Program-made: the position numbers and the translations under genes
Shown: positions 2,677 to 59,553 of the stretch, in pieces
How positions within the stretch are numbered: position 1 is the stretch's first letter
Layout of the letters: each line of letters opens with the position of its first letter
From: a virus
Reading direction: 5' to 3' (one strand)
Virus record (IMG/VR): IMGVR_UViG_3300045988_097913
DNA: 64,000 bases
The notes under the pieces: generated by a model
Database searches by the model: none
The model's input: the letters and a program-made list of their open reading frames with translations, nothing else
What the model was told of the DNA's origin: nothing

Positions 2677-5600
2677 TTATATTGTTGCTGCTTTTATGTT
2701 TTTATAACCACCAAGTCTAGTTTGGTTATTAATTGTTCTAAGGACTTTGTTTACAATATTATCTGCCTCTTTCTTCAAGGAGTTTACAGTAGAAGCATCT
2801 GCATCACCCTGAATGTTAATCGGCATAGAGATATTGATAGAAGAGTTATCGGAGCTAGAATATGTTCTGGTGTTCACTCTTGTGGATTTAACAGCAGTAT
2901 CCACAGCGCTACCGAATGGACTACCTGTAAATCTATTGCTACTAGAGGATGGTGTTGCATTGTTTGCCCATGTAGGAACAACTGCTTCACCAACTTTTAG
3001 AATAGATACAGTTTCGTCATTACCAAGCCCCAGCATTTTATCAAGCATTGGGTTCTGCTTCTTAACGTAATCAGAACCAGAGTGGTGCTTACCAAATATT
3101 GCCTTACCAATACGATATAAGCCATACCCGGGAATCATCATCTTGGTAAAATTAAGCAGTGTACCACCTAGTTTTTGACCAAAATTCTTGTCTCTGTTTT
3201 TCCATAATGCTATCGTATCTTTCCAATAAGTACCTACTGAGCCAATTGCGTTAGCACCGCCAATAACAACAACTCCCGCAGTACCAAGAGTACCTAGTAA
3301 TCCAGCACCGCCAGCAGCAGTAGCAGCTGCGCCGCCAGCGGCGGCTCCGGTTGCACCAGCAGTTCCTCCAATACCAAGTAAACTACCGATTCCTTTTCCA
3401 AGAGATGTAACGATACCACCTATACCGGATAAGAGTTTGCTTCCTCCTTGTATAACCATGCTTACAACTTGGCTTGCAACATTACCTAAATTAGATATAA
3501 TCCCGCTACCAATGTTCCCAAGAGAGCCAAGTGAATTTATACCATACTGAGTTAATCGCTGAATAAATCCAACGCCACTATTAAATACGGTGTTTATTCC
3601 ATTTAAGACAACAGAACTAATTCCTTTTGCTCCATTTGCAAATTTTTGGATTATGCCTCCACCAGACGATGCCATATCATTTATGACCTTACTAAAGGTT
3701 TTGCCTGTATTTGCAAATGATTTTTCGGTTGCTTTGCCAATATCTTTTAGGCTCTTATAAGCTTTCTTAATATCCCCTGTTACATCAGAATCTATCCCAG
3801 AACCAAATAGTTTATTGTATCCTGTGAGCAATTTTGTTACAGTATCGCTACCGGTATTAATTAGTGCTTTGCTAATTAAATTTTTAACTAGGTCACTACT
3901 AAGAATTTTAATAAATGTATTGAAACCATTTTCGATATTTCCTAGAGTAGTCTCAAATTGTTTCTGAGCATCTTGCAAAGTTTGTTTTTGCGCTTCTATA
4001 GCTTTCTTTTCTGCTTCTATTGTCTTTTCATATTCTGATTTTTCTTTATCAAGAGCATCAATTTTTATATCGTAGTCGTTATCCTTTTGCCAATCAGAAA
4101 GGTCTTTTTCTTTTTGTGCTCTTTCATCAAGAAGTTTTAAACGCTTGGCTTGTGCTTCTGCTGAGTCGTCATATTGCAGTTCCATCAATTGAGCATCAAT
4201 ATCCGCAATAGATTTATTCTTTTCGGCAAGTTCATCAGCGTTATCCATCTCTTCTTTTTGAAGTTTTAGGAGTTCTTTTTGCTGGTCAATTTTGTCTTCA
4301 AAAGCATCTTTTTGGTCATCGAGTTCATCAGAAATCTTATCAAGGTTATCAATCTGAGCATCATATCTGTCAGAAATCTTACCTAACATATCAAACAGGA
4401 AATCACCTGCTTTTTCAAGCAAGTCGATTGCCGTATCAATCATATCTTCGATTTCATCTTGTAATGCTTTGATATTCTTAGAAGCGTCATCATATAGGTC
4501 TTGTTGGGCATCATCAAGTGTACCAGTAGACTTTAGTAAGGCGTTTATAACAGCTTCCACCTGTTTTTCTACTGATTCTCCGCTAATATCACCAAGGTTT
4601 AACGCTTCTGCCATAGCAGCTCTGTAATCTGCGTCATTGGTGATTTTGTCAATAAACTTCTGATAATCAGCTTTTGCTGCATTCAGTGCTTCGTCAGAAC
4701 TCCAAGCGCCATAAATACCATTTTTATATTTTTCTATAACAGCCTTAGCAGAACTTAAATCTTCTTTAGCTAGATTCTTTAGAAGTTTTTGGTACGATTC
4801 TTGAATCGTACCAGCTTGTTTTTGCCATAGCGTTGTTAGCTCTTGAATTTGTTTTTCAACTGGCATATTGCTTATATCAAGATTAAACGCATCAGCTAGA
4901 ACTTTTCTGGCTTTTGGGTCGTTTATAACTTCATTTAAGATTTTGTCATATCTGTCTTGGAACTCTTTGACGACAGTTGGGTCATCCCAGTTAGCATTCT
5001 CAGAATACAGCTGTACAATACTCTTTAGGTTTTGAACTTTTTCTTTGATTGCACTTTCAAATTCTTTTGCAGCTTTATCAGCGGCAGATGTACCAGAAGA
5101 GCCAGATTTCCCGGAAGACTTGCTTTTTGGAGGTGTATAAGTTAGTCCAGCTTTTTGTAATTTGGTTAAAGCATCTAATTGCTCTTGTAAATCGTCCTTG
5201 GTCTCTTGCGCTTGCTTTCCTTGTTGCTCAAGATAATATTTTGTTTTTTGCTGTCCACGATATGTGTCCAAATCCGTCGCAGAGACCTTTTCTCCTGCGT
5301 CTATTCTTTTTTGGATAAGCTTACCAAGAGCAATCATTTCTTGCTCTATTGCTTTTATTCTTTTTTTTGTTTCATCAATCACAGACTGCGTTTGTGTTAT
5401 TTGTTGTTTTTTTGTTTCAATAGCTGTATTAAAATAACCATTCGATAAATCTTGAAGAGAATCAATATTTATTCTAATATGCCCATTTTCTACAGTAAGC
5501 GCACTAACAAGAGACGGTTCTTGCTCAATTAGTTTCTGAACTGTGGCGACACTAAGTTCGCCCTTTTCTTTCATTTCGCTATATGCCGCATTTAGAATCT

Positions 5601-7138
5601 CTTGTTTCTCTGTGACATTTGCAACGGTAGAAATATAATCCTTCATTGCCTCGTCTTGAGTAACGAGAGCATTTGTTGCCTCGGTAGTCCAGTCTGCAAC
5701 CTGTTTGGAAGTTAATTCAAATATTGCTTGATTAACTTGCCCATACATTTGCTGGAACTTCGTAAGGAGTTCTTGCGTTAAATTGTCAATGTTTAAATCA
5801 TTGACATCAATATTCATAGCTTGCGCCCAAGCTGCTTTTATAGAATCATCAGAATTTAGAATTTGTTGTGCAAATTTATTTGCATACGCTTCTGCCGTCT
5901 TTTGCCCGGCTTCGTCACCAGCTTGGACAGCTTCTTGTAACTTATCAGAAATACCAGAAGTGTCAATCAAATTTTTGACTTTAATTGTTTCAAAATTAGA
6001 CGGGTCAAGCGCTAGGTTAACCGTGTCAAGTTGCTCTTGAAGCATCTTATACACGTCAGAACTTGTATCCCCAAGATTTTGTAAAGTTTGCATATCTTGA
6101 AGAATTGTTAATTTCTGATTTTGTAAAGCAAGTGTTTGAGCGTCCATCTGAGAATTAAGTTGTTGTAACCTAGTCGCATAATTCTCATCTGTTTTATCGA
6201 GATTTTGTTTTTCTTTGTTTAGCTGGGCAATATTCGCAAGGAGCTGATTGACGCTTGCCGATTCTGCGTCATAAAGTCTTGGTGCGATACCCACAAAAGA
6301 AGACTGATATTCTTCAACAGACTTATTATCGCCATATCTTGATTTAATTTCTCCCTGAGTTTTTTCTTTTGATACGGCTTTATTCGCCTCATTAACATCA
6401 TTTTGCGTTTTCTGAATTTCTTTTAGGACATCAAGTTGTTCTTGAAGGTTCTCTTTTTGTTGCTCATCTGCTAATGTTAAAGTACCTTTAGAGTTGATTT
6501 CTGAGATTTGTTTGTTAATTTCAGTTATTTTATTATTTGTCTCATCAAGGTTCTGTTGGCTCTCTTGCAAGGCTTCATTTGCTTTTTTGACTTGTGCATC
6601 TGGTTGAGCATCTTTCCAAGCGTTCCATGCAACTTTCGCAACAGCTCCAATGGCGGTAATGGCTGCTACTACACCCCATATTGGTACTGCAACAGAACCT
6701 ATTGTAAATAATGTTGTATTTAGCGCCCCAATCGCACTTGTGGCAGTTATCGCAAGACTTGGAAGTTGCCCAATTAAATTGGATGTCTCCCATATATTTT
6801 TAAATATATTGCCTGCAAAAGCTGTTGCTAAAGCAACACCGAGAGCTTTAATTAGTGGACTTAAAACTGGAATTTTATTTAGTAGAATATTTAGAATTTC
6901 TACGACTTTGGACAAACCATCGTATGCTAATGCAAGGGTTCTATCAAGGTTAGAATCCTGTGCAAATTGTTGAACACTTGCGGTTAATCTATTTTGTGCA
7001 GCTTCAAGAGATTCGTTGTAGACCGTCATCTTTTCAGCAGCAACACCGTTTGCATTTTCTGCAACACTAGTCGCTTCTAGGACACGGTTATAGTCCTCCA
7101 TAGCAGCAATAAAGACGTTGCGCTGTCTTGTGCCCGCC
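2677..7138 (-). CDS. Tape measure protein, exon 4 (C-terminal ~1487 codons)
   Basis: Long coiled-coil ORF with Gly-rich and TM-like segments. The frame stays open upstream of the tracked ATG (..DWAGTRQRNVFIAAMEDY). It joins exon 3 in frame to give ..QLAYVV-AGTRQRNVF. Confidence 0.85.
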
Positions 7139-8425
7139 CAATCTGTTACTTTTGTGACCTATTATTAAAATAGGCGAGAACGGTTCTCCTTAAAAGTGTC
7201 TTTACACTTGACCGCTCTTCTATAAGTTTCCTTATAGTTCAGACTATATTTTCATCCTTATACAACAAAACACATCCCAACAATAAGAGATGTGTTTGAT
7301 ATAAGGAGCATTCCTCCTTAGTCGTTACGATGCAATATTTTTAATAAGGTCTTTGTAATTATATTTGATAACTTCGTTATCTAATTCAATGTAACCTCTG
7401 TCACAATAGAAATAGATTACTTTACACCCATCGTTAAATTTAACAAGAGCAAAATCTTTTAGGCGTTCTAGTATATCATTTTCCGGTAGTTTATCCTTGT
7501 CTAGCACGAAAATGATTTGATAGAAGCCGTTGTCTCTGATAGTATCAATTCTATTTTTTTCTTTAGTATTAAATTGTTCTTGCGTCATTTTGCCAAGAAC
7601 AACATCGAGATTATGTCCAGAGCCATTTATCTCAATATCTAATTTATCAGATTCAACGTAAATATCAAAAAGATATTTTCCAATCCTATGATTTATAACT
7701 CCATTATATAAGTCTGCTAAATACTTCTGGCAGTAACTATATAATCCATTATCACCTTGCATAGACTCCATTTGTTTTTTAGCAAATTCATCTACTTTCA
7801 TAGGGTTATCCTCGCCATATCTTTCGATAAGTGTTTTGATTCTTTTGCTATTTATTTCTTTGTTCAAAATTGGATTTTCACATCCGTATCTTTGAATATT
7901 TGTTGCTCTTGCTTTATCTCTAATATCCTGTGATTGCATTGGGTTGTCTATGTTATACCGCTCCTTAAATGTATCTTTTGCTTTAAGATGACGGCAATGC
8001 ACACAAGCGTCCGTTCTGGGTTTTCCTAAAGATTTATCTAACGATACGTTTCTTGTATAACAAGAATATGTAATGTTATATTCCTCTCCACAATAATCAC
8101 ATTTTACAGAGACTTTTACCGTACTTTTTGGTGTTAAATCCTCAACAGGGACTTGTATTTCATCAAACATTTTTACATTATATCCGAGTGATTTATAATG
8201 AGACATAGAATGGTTGTTTACTTTTACTTTAACGAATTTCGTCAAAAGCATATAATACCACCTCCTATTACTTATTATAATCAATATTTTATATTTGTCA
8301 AGACCTAAAACAAAAATATTGTTATCTCGGTATTCCCTTATTTATACAAACTTAGGGTTCACCGATATAGGAATGTTGTAGTGTTATAAACACCTACGAA
8401 TTACTTCGTATTGTGGCTACTTAAA
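7139..8425 (-). mobile_element. Group I intron (TMP intron 3) carrying a homing endonuclease ORF
   Basis: Exon UGUGGU pairs with internal guide GCCACA, placing U.G at the 5' splice site. P4-P5-like UAUCGGUGAACCCU..AGGGAAUACCGAGAUA. S-like GAAAAUAUAGUCUG at 7240-7257. Ends ..AUUG. Removal restores the TMP frame. Confidence 0.8.
7325..8251 (-). CDS. Intron-encoded homing endonuclease, RYG-x2-NP repeat type with a C-terminal PD-(D/E)XK/Vsr-like module (tentative)
   Basis: SD AGGAGGTGG 6 nt before ATG at 8251 (MLLTKFVKV). Contains CDYCG, tandem (E/K)RYGxxNP repeats, DIEINGSGHN and KMTQEQF. Paralog of 8925-9926. Confidence 0.7.
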   Translation of the reverse strand: MLLTKFVKVKVNNHSMSHYKSLGYNVKMFDEIQVPVEDLTPKSTVKVSVKCDYCGEEYNITYSCYTRNVSLDKSLGKPRTDACVHCRHLKAKDTFKERYNIDNPMQSQDIRDKARATNIQRYGCENPILNKEINSKRIKTLIERYGEDNPMKVDEFAKKQMESMQGDNGLYSYCQKYLADLYNGVINHRIGKYLFDIYVESDKLDIEINGSGHNLDVVLGKMTQEQFNTKEKNRIDTIRDNGFYQIIFVLDKDKLPENDILERLKDFALVKFNDGCKVIYFYCDRGYIELDNEVIKYNYKDLIKNIAS

Positions 8426-40102: not shown

Positions 40103-41359
40103 TCATTTAAAAATTACTATCCACGATGAACGAGCTTCTAATCTTTTTAGATTTATAATTTTAGGCGTTTTAAAACCTTTCGGCATATAAGAAAAATCGG
40201 ATTTATTACCATCTATATCCATAAGTATTGCATATCCAGTAGAAAGCCTTCCTTTTATAAAATATTCTTTACCAAAATATCTCACCTTATCAAACTTTCT
40301 GAACCCCTGAATTTTACACGTTGGAATGCGCTGCTCAGAACGAACTCCCTTAGTCTGTTGAAAATCCCCATCTGAAACACATTTCTTTTTGTATAAATTG
40401 CATCTTACGCTAAATTTATTTCCATGTGTTGCAATAACACAAGCGTCATAAAAATGCTCTTTATCTACTCCAAGTTTTAGACGATTTGCCTTTGTTATAT
40501 AACCAAAAGTTTCAATTGCTTCCGGGTAGATTCTAAATAATTGTTTACGAATACTATTCATCTGTGTAGCATATTTTAGATTCCCTTTGACCTTACCTTC
40601 TAATTTAAGACTAATTTTACCACTATGCAACGCCTTATGGCAAGTATGACAAAGTGTAATCAAATTACTTTCTTCGTCTGAACCATGTTTGCTGCGAAAC
40701 ACAATATGATGAACTTCCAGTTTACTGTCTTTATGTTTACCTTTGCAATACTGACAAGTATAATTATCTCGATTTAAAACCATAGCCTTGGTATTTTCAA
40801 ACCCATAATTTGTTCCTTTTTGGTATCCCCAATGTCTTACATTTTCATCTACAAGGCTTGGATTTTTCATAAGGTAAGTATCAAATGTTCCTGTTTCAAA
40901 GACTATAGTAGTTATAGGGAGAATAGATTTGATATATTCTATTTCTTTAACGTGGCTATGGAGTTTACTTACCATCGTGGGACTAAATCTATCCTTCTTA
41001 ATTGAATTTTTGCGATTTAGCCATCTTGCTTTTCTATAACGAGTTTTTCTGCTACGTCTATTTCTGCGGTATTTGGCCCTTTGAGTCATTTTGTCAGTAA
41101 TGTCATTTCTAACAACTACTTCCGACATATAAACTATTTCGCCATCATCGGTAGAAACGGCAGTTCCTATTGCGCCACTTCCTGTATCAACCCCAAGAGT
41201 TAAATCTTGTGTGCAATTAGGAGTCTCGTATAGAAGTTTAATTGTGAATGGACAACGCTTAACTACTTTAGCCTTACCATCTTTTAGAAGATGTTTGACT
41301 TTACCGTGCCTAGTAGTTGGCATAAGCGGTTGTCCATCAATATTCAATACATATACCAT
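40103..41359 (-). CDS. iscB: IscB RNA-guided nuclease (PLMP-RuvC-bridge helix-HNH-RuvC)
   Basis: MVYVLNIDGQPLMPTTRHGKVKHLLKDGKAKVVKRCPFTIKL (PLMP). LGVDTGSGAIG (RuvC-I). RAKYRRNRRSRKTRYRKARW (bridge helix). IVFETG (RuvC-II). CQYCKGK..HHIVFRSKHGSDEESNLITLCHTCHKALH (HNH). HFYDAC (RuvC-III). Confidence 0.9.
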   Translation of the reverse strand: MVYVLNIDGQPLMPTTRHGKVKHLLKDGKAKVVKRCPFTIKLLYETPNCTQDLTLGVDTGSGAIGTAVSTDDGEIVYMSEVVVRNDITDKMTQRAKYRRNRRSRKTRYRKARWLNRKNSIKKDRFSPTMVSKLHSHVKEIEYIKSILPITTIVFETGTFDTYLMKNPSLVDENVRHWGYQKGTNYGFENTKAMVLNRDNYTCQYCKGKHKDSKLEVHHIVFRSKHGSDEESNLITLCHTCHKALHSGKISLKLEGKVKGNLKYATQMNSIRKQLFRIYPEAIETFGYITKANRLKLGVDKEHFYDACVIATHGNKFSVRCNLYKKKCVSDGDFQQTKGVRSEQRIPTCKIQGFRKFDKVRYFGKEYFIKGRLSTGYAILMDIDGNKSDFSYMPKGFKTPKIINLKRLEARSSWIVIFK

Positions 41360-41804
41360 ACTAGACACCCATTTCGTAAAAATAACTCCATTACTTATGT
41401 AATGGTTATGCGTATTGCTATACTATTACCACATAGCTTTTCCGACCTCAACTCGACAATGATATAAAGGCTTTAGCGTATATATCACAAGGCTACTATT
41501 ACTCCAACCTAACTTAAACATATACGACAGAGCGACGGTCTGTTGCGTCAACCGAGGGTGTCATAACCTAAATATCGTAGTTATCATTTCTGGTAACTAA
41601 GTCTGGTAGGCTATTTAATGGAAACTACAAACTCTTATAGTTTGTAGATACCTACAATCATAGAACACAAAGAGCCTATAGCGTCCCACAATTGTACGAC
41701 TACAATTATAAATAATAAAGACCAGACAGGCAAGCCAAAGAACCTGTATCTCCTAACAACGGGTGATAGCAGCTTAGTATCTCTATCCTCTGGTCTTTAA
41801 TTAA
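41360..41804 (-). ncRNA. Candidate IscB omega-RNA region (extent and 5' end undefined)
   Basis: 445 nt without an ORF directly 5' of iscB. Visibly structured: perfect hairpins at 41388-41405 and 41625-41647, and a 10-bp long-range stem between 41717-41726 and 41789-41798. Confidence 0.55.
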
Positions 41805-42410
41805 TTAAAACTTAAACACATTTATAAATTTCTCTCCATATTTGGAAAGCATAATATAACACATAATATAAGCAGAGCAAATAGAAGCAGAAACAAATTG
41901 CATATTAAAAAACACTAGAATACAAGATAAGAAAATTAACACACAAGTTCCCTTAATATAGCGTCTTTTAAACTCAATATCTCTGCTTCCTCTACTAGGA
42001 GAGTTTTCGCTTGGCTTTGGAATAATATAAAACATATCAACAGATGCCAGAAATGTAATAATAACTCCAATCATTACAAATATACTGTTTACGGATAATA
42101 AAATAGCCATCATGCTTCCAACAAATGAGATAATGTTCGTTACCAACCAACAAGAAGCAAATGTCTTACAGTGTTCACCACCGCAAACAGAACGTAGAAA
42201 ACAATAGGTAATCTGAAATGCAAGAAAATACTTGACATATCCAAAAATAAGCGATATAATAAGCCCAGTTCCAAATTCAAACAAAAAACTTAAAATAGCA
42301 AACATACCGTATTGTGTCTCTTCAATTCCATCATCATCTTCATGAAAATAATTTGCTATCTTTAAACCAATTTTATAAGATAAATCTTCAATATATTTAA
42401 AAATATCCAT
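41805..42410 (-). CDS. agrB: AgrB-like autoinducer-processing membrane protease
   Basis: 201 aa, polytopic. LRSVCGGEHCKTFASC matches the AgrB R-x3-GG-x-H..C catalytic region. Confidence 0.8.
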   Translation of the reverse strand: MDIFKYIEDLSYKIGLKIANYFHEDDDGIEETQYGMFAILSFLFEFGTGLIISLIFGYVKYFLAFQITYCFLRSVCGGEHCKTFASCWLVTNIISFVGSMMAILLSVNSIFVMIGVIITFLASVDMFYIIPKPSENSPSRGSRDIEFKRRYIKGTCVLIFLSCILVFFNMQFVSASICSAYIMCYIMLSKYGEKFINVFKF

Positions 42411-42431
42411 AATAAGAATATTCCTTATTTA

Positions 42432-42467
42432 CAAAAAAATAGGGAGCCAGCCAACAAGCCGACTCCC
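42432..42467 (-). terminator. Intra-operon terminator/attenuator between agrD and agrB
   Basis: GC-rich hairpin GGGAGUCGGCUUGUUGGCUGGCUCCC, followed by U7 on the minus strand. Confidence 0.55.
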
Positions 42468-42506
42468 TTATATTATTCTATAATGTCTATAATAATATAA
42501 GTCGGA

Positions 42507-42638
42507 TTAGTTCTCCTTCTTATTTTTGCTAATAATCTTTTCCATTAGAGACTTAGGCATCTTAGGCTGATAGTGACCAAAGAAAGTAAAAGATGCACAA
42601 CTAGCTCCTTTTGCAATAGCCTTTACAAAGTTTTTCAT
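42507..42638 (-). CDS. agrD: AgrD-like cyclic autoinducer peptide precursor (43 aa, absent from ORF track)
   Basis: SD GAAGGA, then MKNFVKAIAKGASCASFTFFGHYQPKMPKSLMEKIISKNKKEN. The YQPKMPKSL tail matches the clostridial AgrD recognition motif. Confidence 0.75.
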   Translation of the reverse strand: MKNFVKAIAKGASCASFTFFGHYQPKMPKSLMEKIISKNKKEN

Positions 42639-43107
42639 ATCTATCCTTCTTTATCCTTATAAAATTATATAATATAATCTGCAAGAGCAAAATAGAAAAA
42701 TTCAATATAAACTCTTGCAAAATACCATTATTGTAAAACAAAATATCATTCTTGAAAATAATTCCAAATATTGTTGATGTTATAATCGAGAATACTCCCA
42801 TTATAAATACGCAAACTAATACTTGTCTCAGTGCAACATTCTCTTTGAAGATAATAAGAAATATTATCTTAATTACAACAGGAAGTACAAAATATGTAAT
42901 AACAATATTCAATATAAGAAATATAATTTTGCCATACCAAAAATATGGTATATATTGAAACAAAAATGTTATTGTACCAAATATAAATAATTTTAAAATC
43001 TTATACCTACCAATTTTTATATCAGAGCCTCTGATAATTCCACATAACAATATAATTGTATACGCTTCAATCGGATTATAAATTAACAAACTTATATGAA
43101 TATTCAT
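42601..43107 (-). CDS. Polytopic membrane protein (5-6 TM), first gene of the agr-like operon
   Basis: 168-aa hydrophobic ORF. Its 3' end overlaps agrD by 38 nt in another frame. Confidence 0.5.
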   Translation of the reverse strand: MNIHISLLIYNPIEAYTIILLCGIIRGSDIKIGRYKILKLFIFGTITFLFQYIPYFWYGKIIFLILNIVITYFVLPVVIKIIFLIIFKENVALRQVLVCVFIMGVFSIITSTIFGIIFKNDILFYNNGILQEFILNFSILLLQIILYNFIRIKKDRYEKLCKGYCKRS

Positions 43108-43155
43108 AACAATCTCCCCTTATACTATTTTATGGAATTATTCGCTTCCATTGTT

Positions 43156-43184
43156 AATATAGCACAATATATAGAAATTGTCAA
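43156..43184 (-). promoter_or_regulatory. Promoter TTGACA-17-TATATT for the membrane-ORF/agrD/agrB unit
   Basis: -35 at 43179-43184 and -10 at 43156-43161 (minus strand). Confidence 0.45.
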
Positions 43185-43186
43185 GA

Positions 43187-43261
43187 CTTCTTTCTAAATT
43201 TGCAACATTTTCTTCTGATATATCAATTTTATCAGAAATATCAACTAAAGCATTAGAGAAT
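43187..43261. repeat. 75-bp perfect direct repeat, copy 1
   Basis: Identical to 43609-43683. Confidence 0.9.
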
Positions 43262-43534
43262 ATCTAGTACAAAGTCAACCCAACACGAGTCCCCGTCATA
43301 CCATTTTTTCTCACCTGTTTTTTTATTTACAGCAATTATACATATATTTTCATAGTCAGGATAAACTCGATAAGAAATCCCATCAGCATCAATAAAAAGC
43401 TTATCATTAGAAATCTTATATTTCAGGTTATACGCTTCGCACAAATCTTTTATATAGGATGCACACTTATCAGAAGATAAACAGTTTCGTTCAACCCATC
43501 TTTTGCTTCGATTGCTGTTCGGATTTCTTTTCAT
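43253..43534 (-). CDS. Hypothetical protein bracketed by the 75-bp repeats
   Basis: 93-aa ORF. Its stop codon lies inside repeat copy 1. Confidence 0.5.
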   Translation of the reverse strand: MKRNPNSNRSKRWVERNCLSSDKCASYIKDLCEAYNLKYKISNDKLFIDADGISYRVYPDYENICIIAVNKKTGEKKWYDGDSCWVDFVLDIL

Positions 43535-43883
43535 AGTCCATCCTTTCTAAAATCTTCTCCTTAAATTCCCTATTTCCTTTTATTTCCTTCAATATAATTC
43601 TTTGTGTGCTTCTTTCTAAATTTGCAACATTTTCTTCTGATATATCAATTTTATCAGAAATATCAACTAAAGCATTAGAGAATGCGTTTAACTTAGAATT
43701 AATATAAAGCAACATAAATATAATTGCTAAAGACAACAATCCAAAGAAAATAATCATTAAAATATCTGAATTGTCAAACATAATTTGTTTCTTTGTCGCA
43801 TATACAATAGAATAATAAATGGTAATAAACATAGTTACAGACACAACGATAGCGACAGAAAAATTTCTTACAATATTTTTCAT
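43491..43883 (-). CDS. Two-TM membrane protein
   Basis: 130-aa ORF. Repeat copy 2 encodes ..SNALVDISDKIDISEENVANLERS.. Confidence 0.5.
   Translation of the reverse strand: MKNIVRNFSVAIVVSVTMFITIYYSIVYATKKQIMFDNSDILMIIFFGLLSLAIIFMLLYINSKLNAFSNALVDISDKIDISEENVANLERSTQRIILKEIKGNREFKEKILERMDYEKKSEQQSKQKMG
43609..43683. repeat. 75-bp perfect direct repeat, copy 2
   Basis: Identical to 43187-43261. Confidence 0.9.
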
Positions 43884-43895
43884 ATAATTTACCCT

Positions 43896-44081
43896 TTACT
43901 TGCGATTGCGAGTCCACTGTTCAAGATATATAGATAGCTCGGGAACTTTTTCAAATACCCAGCAAGTCTTATTCTCTCTGATGTGTACAAACGAAGTAAT
44001 AGGCTCAAATCCATTTCTTTCCAGATATTCTTTAAGGTTGGGAGAATAGCAAGAGAAATATTTTTCCTTTTCATACTTCAT
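43896..44081 (-). CDS. Small hypothetical protein
   Basis: 61-aa ORF with SD GAAGGTGA. Preferred over the overlapping alternative frame at 43889-44074. Confidence 0.45.
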   Translation of the reverse strand: MKYEKEKYFSCYSPNLKEYLERNGFEPITSFVHIRENKTCWVFEKVPELSIYLEQWTRNRK

Positions 44082-56472: not shown

Positions 56473-59400
56473 ATGAATGTAATTAAGCGTGATGGTCGTG
56501 AAGACAAGTTCCAAAAAGGAAAGATAACGCTTGCAATTCAAAAAGCAAGCGACGAGGTAGAAAAAAGCGGTGGGGAAGCGATGCCGCAGATTGCAATTCA
56601 GACAATCGCCACAGAAGTATATAATAATTTTAAAGCACAAGATTGCGCCGTATCTGTCGAAAATATTCAAGATGCAATTGAGTCACTTCTGATGCAACGC
56701 GGTTATTATGATGTCGCAAAAACGTATATTCGTTATCGTTATGAGCGCCAGCTTGCTAGAAACGGTAATACGACTGATGGCAAAATTCTGTCTATTGTTG
56801 ATGGCGTAAATGAAGATGTAATTCAAGAAAACAGTAACAAGAATCCTAAAATTGCAGCTACGCAACGTGATTATATTGCTGGTGAAGTAAGCCGTGATAT
56901 TGTAAATCGTCTGATTCTTCCAAAAGACATTCGTGAAGCACATGAGCAAGGCTTGATTCATTTTCATGACTCTGACTATGCGATTCAACGGATGCATAAC
57001 TGTTTTAAGGGTAACACACGTCTTGTAACGGATGATGGTGTAAAAGAATTTAGAGATTTCAATGACGGTGAAACTGTTAAGGTTATTGGCTCTGATGGCG
57101 AATGGCATATTGCTACCGTAAAAAAGTACGGAAAACAAAAAATGCAAGATGTCATGATTCAGTCTGGTCGTTCAATTAAGCACGTCCTCTGTACCGCCAA
57201 TCACAGATGGTTATTGAATGACGGAAGTGTAACGACGAATTTAAAAGAAGGAATGGTTCTTACATCGCTACCTGAATTGTCTAAATATGAAATGAAGTCA
57301 AAAGAAGACTACCAAGCATGGGCTATTGGTTTTGCGATTGGAGATGGTGTCGATAAGAAATCTGGCTATACAACAGTTCGCTTATGCGGAGAAAAATCAG
57401 TATATGTAGATTACTTTGTAAAGGCTGGTTACACTGTCACATATCCAGAATCTTACCGTGGAGATGCCTACGCTTTGTGTAAGAACGCTTTTAAGCAAGA
57501 CTTTTTAAATGCTAAAGCATGGCGCTTCCTAGATGGAAAAAGAAAGCAATTTCTTTTTGATGGTTTTTATGCGGCAGACGGAGCCGTTGAAACCAATAGA
57601 GTCTCTACTGTTGATGACCGAGTTGCAGAAATGATTCGTGATATTTCCTCTATCGCAGGATTTTATATTGCAAGCGAATCCGAAACTATCCATGATACAA
57701 ACTTCAAGAAAAATGCTAGACTAATTAACTTCCGGTTCAGAAAATACCAAAATGCAAACAATTTATGGAGCGTAAAGAAAATTACGCCTTATCGTCCAGA
57801 TATTGAATATGATGCTTGGTGTGTTGAAGAGCCAGAAACACATTCCTTTACTCTTGACGGTGGTGTTGTAACTGGAAACTGTTGCCTAATTAATCTGGAA
57901 GATATGCTCCAAAATGGTACTGTGATTAACGGTACTCTAATTGAGAAGCCTCATAGTTTTGCAACTGCTTGCAATATTGCGACTCAGGTGATGGCACAAG
58001 TAGCAAGCAATCAATATGGTGGACAGAGCGAATCGTTAGCACATCTCGTTCCATTTATTGATGTTAGCAGAAAGAAAATCAGAAAGCAAGTGATGGAAGA
58101 AGTTGCTCTGTTAAATTCAAATGCTACGGATGAACAGATTAATGAGATTACAGAAGGTCGTCTAAAAGAAGAAATTAAACGTGGAGTTCAGACAATTCAG
58201 TATCAAATTAATACTTTGATGACGACTAATGGGCAGACACCATTTGTATCTATTTTCCTTTATTTAAATGAAGTAAAGGATGGTAGAGAAAAAGACGACT
58301 TCGCAATGCTCATCGAAGAGGTTCTAAAGCAAAGAATTGAGGGAACCAAAAATGAACAGGGTGTATGGATTACTCCTGCATTCCCAAAGATTCTTTATGT
58401 ACTAGAAGAAGATAATATCCATGAGGGAGATAAGTATTATTATCTAACAGAGCTTGCCGCTAAATGTACAGCAAAGCGTATGGTTCCAGATTATATTTCA
58501 GAAAAGAAAATGCTGGAATATAAGGGTGATTGCTTCCCCTGTATGGGGTGTCGCTCGTTCCTAACTCCTGACCGCACGACAGAGAATTTAGCGAATGCTA
58601 ATAACTGGGTTAAGGGAAAGAAGTATTACGGACGTTTTAATCAAGGCGTTGTTACTATTAATCTTGCAGATGTCGGTTTAAGTGCAAACAAAGATTTTAA
58701 TAAATTCTGGAAGATTTTTGACGAACGTCTTGAGTTGTGTCACAGGGCGCTACAGATTCGCCATAATAGACTTCTTGGTACTCTATCAGATGTATCTCCA
58801 ATTCACTGGCAACATGGAGGTCTTGCTCGTCTAAAGAAAGGAGAGAAGATTGATAAGCTCCTGTATGACGGTTATTCAACCATTAGTCTAGGATATGCTG
58901 GTCTCTACGAATGCGTTATTGCTATGACTGGCAAGAGTCATACAAGTGATGGGGCAAAACCGTTCGCACTTGAAATCATGCAACACATGAATGATAAGTG
59001 TAATGAATGGAAAGCCTCTGAAAACATTGATTATAGTTTGTATGGCTCCCCAATCGAATCCACTACATACAAGTTTGCCAAGTGCCTAAAGAGGCGTTTC
59101 GGTGTTATTCCGGGTATTACAGATAGAAATTATATTACAAACTCTTATCATGTTGTTGTAACCGAAAAGATTGATGCCTTTACAAAACTGAAATTTGAAA
59201 GCGAATTTCAGAAACTATCTCCGGGTGGTGCCATAAGTTATATAGAAATACCTAACTTGAATAATAATGTCGAGGCTGTTCTCTCTGTAATCAAGTTTAT
59301 TTATGACAACATTATGTATGCAGAACTAAATACCAAATGTGATTACTGTCAGGTCTGTGGTTATGACGGAGAAATCCAAATCGTAAAAGATGATGATGGT

Positions 59401-59553
59401 AAGCTAGTTTGGGAATGTCCAAATTGTAAAAATCGTGATAAATCAAAAATGAACATCGTGCGTAGAACTTGTGGTTATCTTGGTACTAATGACTGGAATC
59501 AAGGTCGCACACAAGAGATTAAAGAGCGAGTTGTTCATCTAGGAGTCCAGTAA
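56473..59553 (+). CDS. nrdD: Anaerobic ribonucleoside-triphosphate reductase NrdD (contains an intein)
   Basis: N-terminal ATP-cone. C-terminal Zn ribbon CDYCQVCG..CPNCKN. Glycyl-radical motif RRTCGYLG. Confidence 0.9.
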   Translation: MNVIKRDGREDKFQKGKITLAIQKASDEVEKSGGEAMPQIAIQTIATEVYNNFKAQDCAVSVENIQDAIESLLMQRGYYDVAKTYIRYRYERQLARNGNTTDGKILSIVDGVNEDVIQENSNKNPKIAATQRDYIAGEVSRDIVNRLILPKDIREAHEQGLIHFHDSDYAIQRMHNCFKGNTRLVTDDGVKEFRDFNDGETVKVIGSDGEWHIATVKKYGKQKMQDVMIQSGRSIKHVLCTANHRWLLNDGSVTTNLKEGMVLTSLPELSKYEMKSKEDYQAWAIGFAIGDGVDKKSGYTTVRLCGEKSVYVDYFVKAGYTVTYPESYRGDAYALCKNAFKQDFLNAKAWRFLDGKRKQFLFDGFYAADGAVETNRVSTVDDRVAEMIRDISSIAGFYIASESETIHDTNFKKNARLINFRFRKYQNANNLWSVKKITPYRPDIEYDAWCVEEPETHSFTLDGGVVTGNCCLINLEDMLQNGTVINGTLIEKPHSFATACNIATQVMAQVASNQYGGQSESLAHLVPFIDVSRKKIRKQVMEEVALLNSNATDEQINEITEGRLKEEIKRGVQTIQYQINTLMTTNGQTPFVSIFLYLNEVKDGREKDDFAMLIEEVLKQRIEGTKNEQGVWITPAFPKILYVLEEDNIHEGDKYYYLTELAAKCTAKRMVPDYISEKKMLEYKGDCFPCMGCRSFLTPDRTTENLANANNWVKGKKYYGRFNQGVVTINLADVGLSANKDFNKFWKIFDERLELCHRALQIRHNRLLGTLSDVSPIHWQHGGLARLKKGEKIDKLLYDGYSTISLGYAGLYECVIAMTGKSHTSDGAKPFALEIMQHMNDKCNEWKASENIDYSLYGSPIESTTYKFAKCLKRRFGVIPGITDRNYITNSYHVVVTEKIDAFTKLKFESEFQKLSPGGAISYIEIPNLNNNVEAVLSVIKFIYDNIMYAELNTKCDYCQVCGYDGEIQIVKDDDGKLVWECPNCKNRDKSKMNIVRRTCGYLGTNDWNQGRTQEIKERVVHLGVQ
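57001..57879 (+). mobile_element. Intein with a LAGLIDADG homing endonuclease domain (293 aa)
   Basis: Starts CFKGNTRLVTDDG and ends THSFTLDGGVVTGN|C. LAGLIDADG motifs WAIGFAIGDGV and FLFDGFYAADGAV. Excision yields ..RMHN-CCLINLEDML. Confidence 0.85.

Follow-up and report, generated by a model that had tools for sequence, protein, structure and literature searches.

A phage-borne agr-type cassette with pherotype-like variation in a human-gut phage lineage

The 64,000-nucleotide viral sequence IMGVR_UViG_3300045988_097913, here called the window, carries on its minus strand a compact agr-type cassette (41805-43107). It consists of a gene for a 168-amino-acid (aa) membrane protein, TM168, an agrD gene that overlaps it, a hairpin, and agrB. 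A first, sequence-only reading of this DNA had proposed a phage-borne agr cassette, and this is borne out: AgrB and AgrD both pass curated cut-offs, and phage genes, including those for portal, terminase, tape measure and NrdD (anaerobic ribonucleotide reductase, 56473-59553), surround them. The cassette is a self-contained, dispensable and accessory, moron-like agr-type module of a human-gut phage lineage. Its accessory, moron-like status follows from its low GC content, 27.2% against 34.7% for the whole window, and from relatives that have lost parts of it. Our preferred account, to which we assign a probability of about 0.4, is that this dispensable module makes a threonine-lactone peptide and that TM168 serves as its allele-matched cognate binder or receptor.

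The 201-aa product of the last gene is an AgrB with its catalytic residues in place. It matches PF04647 with 90.5 bits (cut-off 23) over profile positions 3-181 of 185, and R73, G77, G78, H80, C87 and P131 are invariant in seven divergent cassettes, including that of the Clostridium difficile phage phiCDHM1. The essential or catalytic residues of Staphylococcus aureus AgrB are R70, G75, H77 and C84 (PMC10196373), and the spacing of R73, G78, H80 and C87 is identical. The AgrB identity proposed earlier therefore stands, with H80 and C87 aligned to the catalytic His and Cys. The gene evolves with a dN/dS of about 0.16.

The 43-aa open reading frame (ORF) read earlier as AgrD had been given with its exact sequence, and it passes the cut-off of 19 of NCBIfam TIGR04223 with 25.3 bits. 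The same model gives 30.8 bits for the allele of locus L001 and 23.9 bits for the AgrD tail fused to family member P0069, while most type-2 (GEPKL) AgrD tails give no score. The precursor is made up of a short amphipathic leader (M1 to about A12), a variable core and a follower, Y23-QPKMPKSLMEK. This follower is charged, has the P-x-x-P / xQPK motif (YQPKMPKSLMEK) and lies 96 nt upstream of agrB. Its QPKMPKSL is identical to the motif in phiCDHM1 AgrD.

The residue on which the peptide ring closes had been sought in Cys14 or a Ser of a "Cys/Ser core". Such residues are present in the AgrD of the window, but they are confined to that allele; sister alleles have no Cys, or have a Cys or Ser at non-equivalent positions, so that neither Cys14 nor the serines are conserved. 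F17-T18 is constant, and between it and the follower stand four residues that vary. Clostridial autoinducing peptides (AIPs) have a macrocycle of exactly five residues before the xQP follower, as in ANST[CPWII], [CLWFT] and NSA[SSWVA] (PMC12312760), and the corresponding position in phiCDHM1 AgrD is Ser (TT-SVWYI-NQPKMPKSL). Five residues before the follower, about 44 of some 45 AgrDs and fused tails of the family have Thr, one has Ser (P0065) and none has Cys; examples of ring/follower junctions are TFFGH/YQPK, TSFNY/YQPK, TVNCW/GEPK and SWKMY/GESK. Since Thr is nearly invariant at this canonical position, the ring is most likely closed on Thr18, which would give a five-residue lactone, T-F-F-G-H (Thr18 to His22). 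Closure on Cys14 or Ser is unlikely because those residues are absent from the sister alleles. An AgrD usually has Cys, rarely Ser, at the ring position, where the window has Thr18. The side chain of Thr is chemically equivalent to that of Ser, and this is a variant of AgrD, not a ground for exclusion from the family. A Thr-lactone was not found among the AIPs in the literature checked, where ring residues are Cys and rarely Ser (PMC12312760), and as far as that literature goes it would be a new AIP ring variant.

Among close relatives TM168 changes together with the peptide. One genome among 50,697 deposited phage genomes, the unannotated MT835481 from human faeces, has the cassette with a DNA identity of about 93%, and IMG/VR holds 17 further loci of the lineage of the window, on contigs mostly of 60-80 kb (range 8-151 kb). 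When the window is compared with MT835481, identity is 95% for AgrB and 93-99% for five neighbouring genes, but only 36% for TM168 (60% for its nucleotides); the AgrD cores, GASCASFTFFGH for the window and KSVENAFTNFAH for MT835481, match at 45%. The same holds for loci L001 and L002, with values of 97% for AgrB, 39% for TM168 and 45% for the AgrD core. Over 14 loci AgrB is 88-100% identical and TM168 36-100%, the latter falling into about seven discrete alleles, and each TM168 allele has its own AgrD core (Mantel r = 0.87, 14 loci).

A sliding window over nine loci delimits a block (42574-43050) with 48-70% mean pairwise nucleotide identity between flanks of 85-96%. One boundary of the block lies just past the motif at the N-terminus of TM168, which is conserved, and the other directly in front of the YQPKMP follower in AgrD; the block thus covers TM168 and the leader and core of AgrD, and AgrB lies outside. 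Among loci that share an allele, dS is lower for TM168 (0.067) than for the adjacent agrB (0.188), which suggests that phage backbones have recently exchanged the allele block by recombination. Judged by sequence, discrete alleles, a bounded hypervariable block and conserved flanks are all found, as in agr-type specificity groups, and the polymorphism resembles agr specificity groups or pherotypes. TM168 is on this evidence the allele-matched partner of the peptide. The earlier description of it as an orphan does not hold, as no gene is linked more tightly to agrD: it overlaps agrD in every locus examined and co-varies with the peptide. Within the lineage TM168 similarity is unrelated to the AgrD leader (r = -0.15) and weakly tracks the exocyclic tail (r = 0.50) and the ring (r = 0.35).

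Searched with a HMMER profile, 1.84 billion representative proteins yielded a TM168 family of 71 clusters with lengths of 36-201 aa, where full-length members have about 150-200 aa and the rest are shorter fragments. No kinase domain or kinase fusion was found in any of these 71 clusters, so that the description of TM168 as a membrane protein without a kinase was correct. The window copy has no Pfam or NCBIfam match, a Pfam search of 55 family members gave only isolated single-member matches at E >= 0.0057 (the best being Peptidase_U4, SpoIIGA), and a PDB sequence profile search gave no match. The family has no annotated relative and is, as far as these searches reach, previously undescribed. 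The AlphaFold2 (AF2) model, made from a 57-sequence alignment, is a confident five-helix bundle with a predicted local distance difference test score (pLDDT) of 89.9 and a predicted template modelling score (pTM) of 0.81. The protein is thus polytopic as expected, but with exactly five helices instead of the "5-6" estimated before. Compared with PDB folds this model gave no match (best E = 2.3), and its sole match in BFVD was another uncharacterised member of the TM168 family; an earlier model with a pLDDT of 68.6 had no fold match either.

The Lys/Arg distribution, with positive charge in loops 1 and 3 and in the tail at the C-terminus, indicates a probable N-out/C-in topology. Invariant or nearly invariant residues are S6, L7, Y10, N11, P12, E14 and A15 in transmembrane helix (TM) 1, G44, N47 (Thr in the window copy) and Q51 in TM2, and E132 and N136 in TM5. 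The polar ones among them lie near the outer ends of these three helices, and variation is greatest in TM3, in TM4 and in every loop. With a dN/dS of 0.17-0.56 TM168 is under purifying selection and evolves faster than agrB. From its dN/dS and the confident structure model we conclude that TM168 is a functional gene.

Known membrane proteins of agr systems were considered as relatives of TM168. A truncated or divergent AgrC sensor was rejected as far as homology can be detected: the exhaustive HMMER search returned short stand-alone proteins only, and TM168, at 168 aa, has no HisKA/HATPase kinase core. The comparison with AgrC sensor domains that had been called for earlier detected no homology, with hhalign probabilities of 0.13% against phiCDHM1 AgrC and 0.38% against a sensor-domain profile of the C. 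difficile clade, which is a narrow profile. An AgrB paralogue (hhalign probability 0.27%) and a CPBP/MroQ-like protease (none of the 55 members matches PF02517 at E <= 0.1, and there is no conserved His) were rejected as well. C. difficile genomes also contain stand-alone ORFs of 219-222 aa annotated as "histidine kinase" (P0154-P0160, of which P0160 stands for 751 sequences) that match the sensor half of the phiCDHM1-type AgrC; these represent agrC genes that have been split or pseudogenised, or else true proteins of a sensor alone.

The cassette keeps its architecture over a wide range of phages. Distant phages whose TM168 is 24-40% identical to that of the window retain the order membrane gene, overlapping agrD, hairpin and agrB, in a syntenic neighbourhood with a HU gene upstream and YonJ/YonG-like genes downstream, and TM168 lies directly upstream of agrB, overlapping agrD, in every context sampled. 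No close relative of TM168 or AgrB was found in GTDB, searched with one genome per species, and members of the TM168 family seem to occur in phage and metagenome sequences only. In the window, as in most of its relatives, none of the three ORFs is interrupted. The small agrD ORF, whose conservation had been named as a check, is whole at 16 of 17 loci of related phages and also at more distant ones. In L015 and L018 (about 4200-5600 in each) deletions have fused a gene lying upstream with the 3' portion of agrB.

The coordinates of the cassette and of the elements beside it are given in Table 1. The three ORFs, their 38-nt overlap (42601..42638) and the Shine-Dalgarno sequence of agrD had all been placed correctly before. 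This sequence, AAGGA, precedes the agrD ATG, and agrD thus has a ribosome site of its own. The predicted promoter is also present, though as a consensus match only: 11 of 12 consensus positions are matched, such sites are no commoner in the region than in shuffles, and the stretch is 81-90% conserved across relatives.

Table 1. Positions of the cassette genes, their signals and the neighbouring elements in the window.
Feature	Position	Strand	Basis
TM168 gene, 168-aa membrane protein ORF	42601-43107	minus	ORF list
agrD, 43-aa precursor ORF	42507-42638	minus	TIGR04223 match; ORF sequence MKNFVKAIAKGASCASFTFFGHYQPKMPKSLMEKIISKNKKEN
agrB, 201-aa membrane cysteine peptidase/cyclase	41805-42410	minus	PF04647 match; ORF includes LRSVCGGEHCKTFASC
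Sigma-70-like promoter TTGACA-17-TATATT with TG-extended -10, 5' of the TM168 gene	43156-43184	minus	Consensus match
Hypervariable (pherotype-like) block	42574-43050	minus	Sliding-window nucleotide identity
Candidate intrinsic terminator/attenuator hairpin and T-run in the agrD-agrB gap	42431-42468	minus	Terminator scan and folding
IscB	40103-41368	minus	NF040563, 335 bits
omega/HEARO RNA	41441-41655	minus	RF02033, 75.7 bits, below the gathering score of 83, E = 1.5e-14
Skipping-rope RNA, 80 nt	41718-41797	minus	RF02924, 43.1 bits (gathering score 36.7)

The hairpin between agrD and agrB (42468-42441) has a 12-bp stem with seven G-C pairs, followed by T7, and a folding z of -3.8; terminator-like sites number four in the region against 0.6 expected. 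Loci L034 and L037 have a hairpin and T-run in the same position with unrelated stem sequences. This conservation of position despite unrelated stems supports the view that the hairpin is a real terminator or attenuator, which would give a high ratio of TM168 and AgrD to AgrB. A high precursor-to-enzyme ratio is common in peptide-precursor operons.

About a quarter of the TM168 family members have 174-205 aa and end in an in-frame AgrD sequence. The fused form P0123, for instance, ends in MKNILKTIANKYTEKAFTIMGHYQPKMPKILKEKLEKNK and is present on 12 contigs. No separate agrD was called at fused loci, and one fused tail, that of P0069, passes the AgrD model. Such fusions might be taken as Rosetta-stone proof of a shared pathway, an argument weakened by the small step that separates the two states. 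L042 (1180-1400) and L043 (2641-2860) share 98% DNA identity and an identical AgrD peptide, and a single T separates the fused state (197 aa) from the unfused one (167 + 41 aa); it lies in a T4/T5 run that closely precedes the GGAG Shine-Dalgarno sequence and ATG belonging to agrD itself. Furthermore, Met is kept at nearly every fusion junction, and the conserved "YEK" tail of unfused TM168 is the start of agrD (ATGAAAAA) in the other frame. Because of the single-T difference upstream of the ribosome site and start codon, and the retained junction Met, the fusions probably reflect toggling of the reading frame between two overlapping genes, with AgrD still starting on its own. Programmed frameshifting from TM168 into agrD was also considered, but by inspection of the sequence no canonical slippery site was visible at the overlap. 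As the fusions show, an AgrD appendage is tolerated at the C-terminus of TM168, in keeping with a cytoplasmic position of this end, and the overlap is ancient and selected. The 190-aa member P0053 (JGI contig, 59 kb) is extended at its C-terminus by a sequence (KETYENSGKEVHTGCIHNDEGISATDSKEIS) that fits neither of the two AgrD tail types.

Two tyrosine recombinases are encoded among the 59 ORFs of the window, as judged by Pfam, and suggest that the phage is temperate. The absence of an AgrC kinase and an AgrA regulator noted earlier was confirmed in that these ORFs gave no match to a HisKA, HATPase, receiver or LytTR domain; likewise no HisKA or HATPase was found among the 25 of 28 Pfam families listed for the remainder of a related phage genome. 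Further Pfam matches in the window are a radical-SAM/4Fe-4S protein, a ClpP-family protease, a protein with a PAPS-reductase domain and two DUF7487 proteins. Upstream of the cassette on the minus strand (43253-43883 and 43896-44081) lie three small genes for proteins of 61, 130 and 93 aa, of which the 130-aa product has two TM helices and a coiled coil. They have no family match at curated cut-offs, are not hypervariable and are syntenic with the cassette even in L034, L035, L037 and L039.

Downstream, the IscB element had been described as abutting agrB and as part of the layout. Neither description holds, since the skipping-rope RNA and the omega/HEARO RNA lie between the two genes and IscB is missing in most relatives. 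The skipping-rope RNA, a class with no function assigned (PMC5737381), begins 7 nt past the agrB stop and is about 95% conserved in relatives with or without IscB; that of L001 (6019-6098, minus strand, 41.4 bits) was missed under default Rfam filters. IscB and its omega RNA are inserted between the skipping-rope RNA and an 88-aa ORF, which adjoin in relatives, and L005 shares the sequence of the window beyond the insertion point. In L037 a TnpB (IS605 OrfB) gene (6482-7585) occupies the same spot, which suggests that the site 3' of agrB is a hotspot for IS200/605-type elements. IscB is an incidental insertion and no component of the agr system.

We propose the following working model. One promoter would drive TM168 and the overlapping, independently initiated agrD, and the hairpin terminator after agrD would limit read-through into agrB. 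AgrB would remove the AgrD follower between H22 and Y23, a chemistry inferred from its family, and close the new C-terminus onto Thr18, yielding a T-F-F-G-H lactone with a short exocyclic tail. In a pocket close to the outer leaflet TM168 would bind the mature, variable part of the peptide, and so act as a kinase-less cognate binding protein or receptor that gives these phages pherotypes like the agr groups or arbitrium types. This role for TM168 is the one we favour, tentatively and at somewhat less than even odds. It is preferred because a fall to 36% identity within a backbone that is 95% identical is what specificity pairs typically show, and because TM168 ignores the leader and weakly follows the tail and ring (seven alleles).

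Several observations weigh against the model. The within-lineage correlation rests on seven alleles, with p of about 0.04-0.08, and family-wide every part of AgrD correlates with TM168, the partial Mantel tests being confounded by phylogeny. Co-variation of adjacent, overlapping genes is partly due to physical linkage. As for the ring, in the window allele C14, S13 and S16 could serve instead as nucleophiles of a larger ring, and a Thr-lactone is without counterpart among the AIPs of the literature checked. L003 keeps agrD and agrB with a 98-aa soluble ORF in place of TM168, and L004 and L014 have split TM168 ORFs (at about 4200-5600 in each of these loci). For a receptor role no output domain or partner was identified, TM168 is almost without cytoplasmic mass, and neither HMMER nor hhalign detected homology to an AgrC sensor. 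Finally, a site of catalysis or transport would just as typically have conserved Glu, Asn and Gln within the membrane.

The last point leads to a rival reading, rather unlikely in our judgement, in which the cassette serves production only. TM168 would be a maturation factor of the MroQ kind or an AIP exporter, the peptide would activate or block an AgrC-type kinase of the host, and the alleles would track host agr pherotypes. By removing the leader and/or moving the AgrB-cyclised intermediate across the membrane, TM168 would make the phage independent of the host in this respect. In favour of such a role, AIP production requires a second membrane protease and the exporter is unidentified (PMC12312760); E14, E132, N11, N136 and Q51 near the outer leaflet resemble an active or transport site; the agrD overlap and the tolerated in-frame fusions place the C-terminus of TM168 on the side of AgrD synthesis; and the AgrD leader is unusually short (about 12 aa). 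No receptor output was found in the phage, and phiCDHM1 and many clostridia also lack AgrA, or AgrC and AgrA, beside agrBD (PMC3901668, PMC12312760). Other findings speak against maturation. MroQ is invariant across agr groups, so that a leader protease needs no alleles of 36% identity (PMC12312760), AgrB, which handles every ring variant, stays conserved, and within the lineage TM168 does not track the AgrD leader. TM168 also has no conserved His, and the 55 members gave no CPBP/Rce1 or other peptidase match except the weak one to Peptidase_U4 (SpoIIGA) in one member (E = 0.0057). No host or host AgrC was identified in GTDB, at one genome per species.

Extending the receptor model further, TM168 could found a new class of kinase-less receptors within a complete phage-phage system with pherotypes and a Thr-lactone, an agr counterpart of arbitrium. 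This broader claim we consider unlikely.

Small polytopic membrane proteins beside co-diversifying peptides are typical of bacteriocin immunity, and TM168 with AgrD has this appearance. The cyclic AgrD peptide could then be antimicrobial to non-lysogens or competitors, with TM168 as the allele-specific immunity protein, which would account for the hypervariable block, the absent regulator and kinase, the co-expression forced by the overlap and the moron-like dispensability. The peptide nevertheless scores as AgrD, and to our knowledge every characterised AgrD product is a signal and none a toxin, so that this use would be without precedent. A five-residue macrocycle is furthermore small for a membrane-active bacteriocin, and there is no bacteriocin ABC exporter nearby; we regard a toxin-immunity pair as improbable. 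That the cassette is a decaying hitch-hiker without present function in this phage, as the deletions (L015, L018), the split (L004, L014) or replaced (L003) TM168, the GC content of 27% against 35% and the gathering of insertion elements beside it might suggest, is very improbable given three intact ORFs in the window and most relatives, a dN/dS that is below 1 in TM168 and about 0.16 in AgrB, invariant catalytic residues, and an architecture kept between phages with only 24% identical TM168.

The receptor model can be set against known systems, of which the nearest is the agr3 locus of phiCDHM1 (Clostridium phage CDMH1, HG531805), with agrC-agrB-agrD and no AgrA (PMC3901668). Like the window it combines a phage-borne AgrB and AgrD without AgrA, the AgrBs are 30% identical and share R-x3-GG-x-H-x6-C, neither AgrD has Cys at the ring position next to the identical follower motif, and in both phages the agr genes are lower in GC than the rest. 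The two differ in that phiCDHM1 encodes a 453-aa AgrC kinase where the window has the unrelated, kinase-less TM168, in gene order (C-B-D against TM-D-B), in the ring residue (Ser against the predicted Thr) and in carrier, the one being a C. difficile myovirus and the other an uncultured gut phage of 65-80 kb. For phiCDHM1 no series of alleles resembling pherotypes has been reported. The placement of D before B, once thought unusual, is shared with C. difficile agr1 (agrD1B1; PMC12312760) and agr2 (AgrA, AgrC, AgrD, AgrB; PMC3901668).

An oxygen nucleophile instead of Cys is also found in the Ser-lactone AIPs, namely RIPT[STGFF] of Staphylococcus pseudintermedius, GBAP of Enterococcus faecalis and NSA[SSWVA] of C. 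difficile agr2 (PMC12312760), whereas the present family has almost exclusively Thr. The S. aureus agr groups likewise show a bounded hypervariable segment with discrete alleles over the peptide core and an adjacent polytopic partner (PMC12312760). There, however, the segment comprises the agrB 3' end, agrD and the agrC sensor, while here AgrB lies outside, the partner is neither a kinase nor an AgrC homologue, AgrA and RNAIII are lacking and the carrier is a phage. As with MroQ, a CPBP-family protein that removes the AgrD leader, TM168 would be a second polytopic protein acting on AgrD besides AgrB, and it has conserved intramembrane acidic and amide residues; unlike MroQ it is without a CPBP or other Pfam match or a conserved His, smaller and hypervariable. 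In arbitrium (aimR-aimP) and Rap-Phr systems the gene for the receptor comes first and a small propeptide gene, which often overlaps it, comes next, and the pairs diversify as cassettes among related phages. The window shows the same arrangement of a partner gene and a small overlapping peptide gene that diversify together among phages. Those receptors, in contrast, are cytoplasmic TPR proteins (RRNPP) that sense imported linear peptides, whereas here a macrocycle, presumably cyclised by AgrB, would meet an integral membrane partner.

An agr-type peptide cassette in a phage is thus known already. To the extent of our searches three things are new, namely the conserved family of TM168, the pherotypes of phages and Thr at the ring position. 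Hitherto a single C. difficile phage was essentially the only known source of phage agr genes; a compact agr module with a pherotype-like variable part is now found across an entire human-gut phage lineage. Its peptide and partner pairs, at least seven on near-identical backbones, form a natural allelic series for specificity swaps. The module bears on AIP biology in the export and trimming of the peptide, the kinase-less sensing of cyclic autoinducers and ring closure by AgrB on Thr. If the peptide is a phage-phage or phage-host signal in the gut, viral communication would extend beyond the RRNPP/arbitrium and LuxR/VqmA systems.

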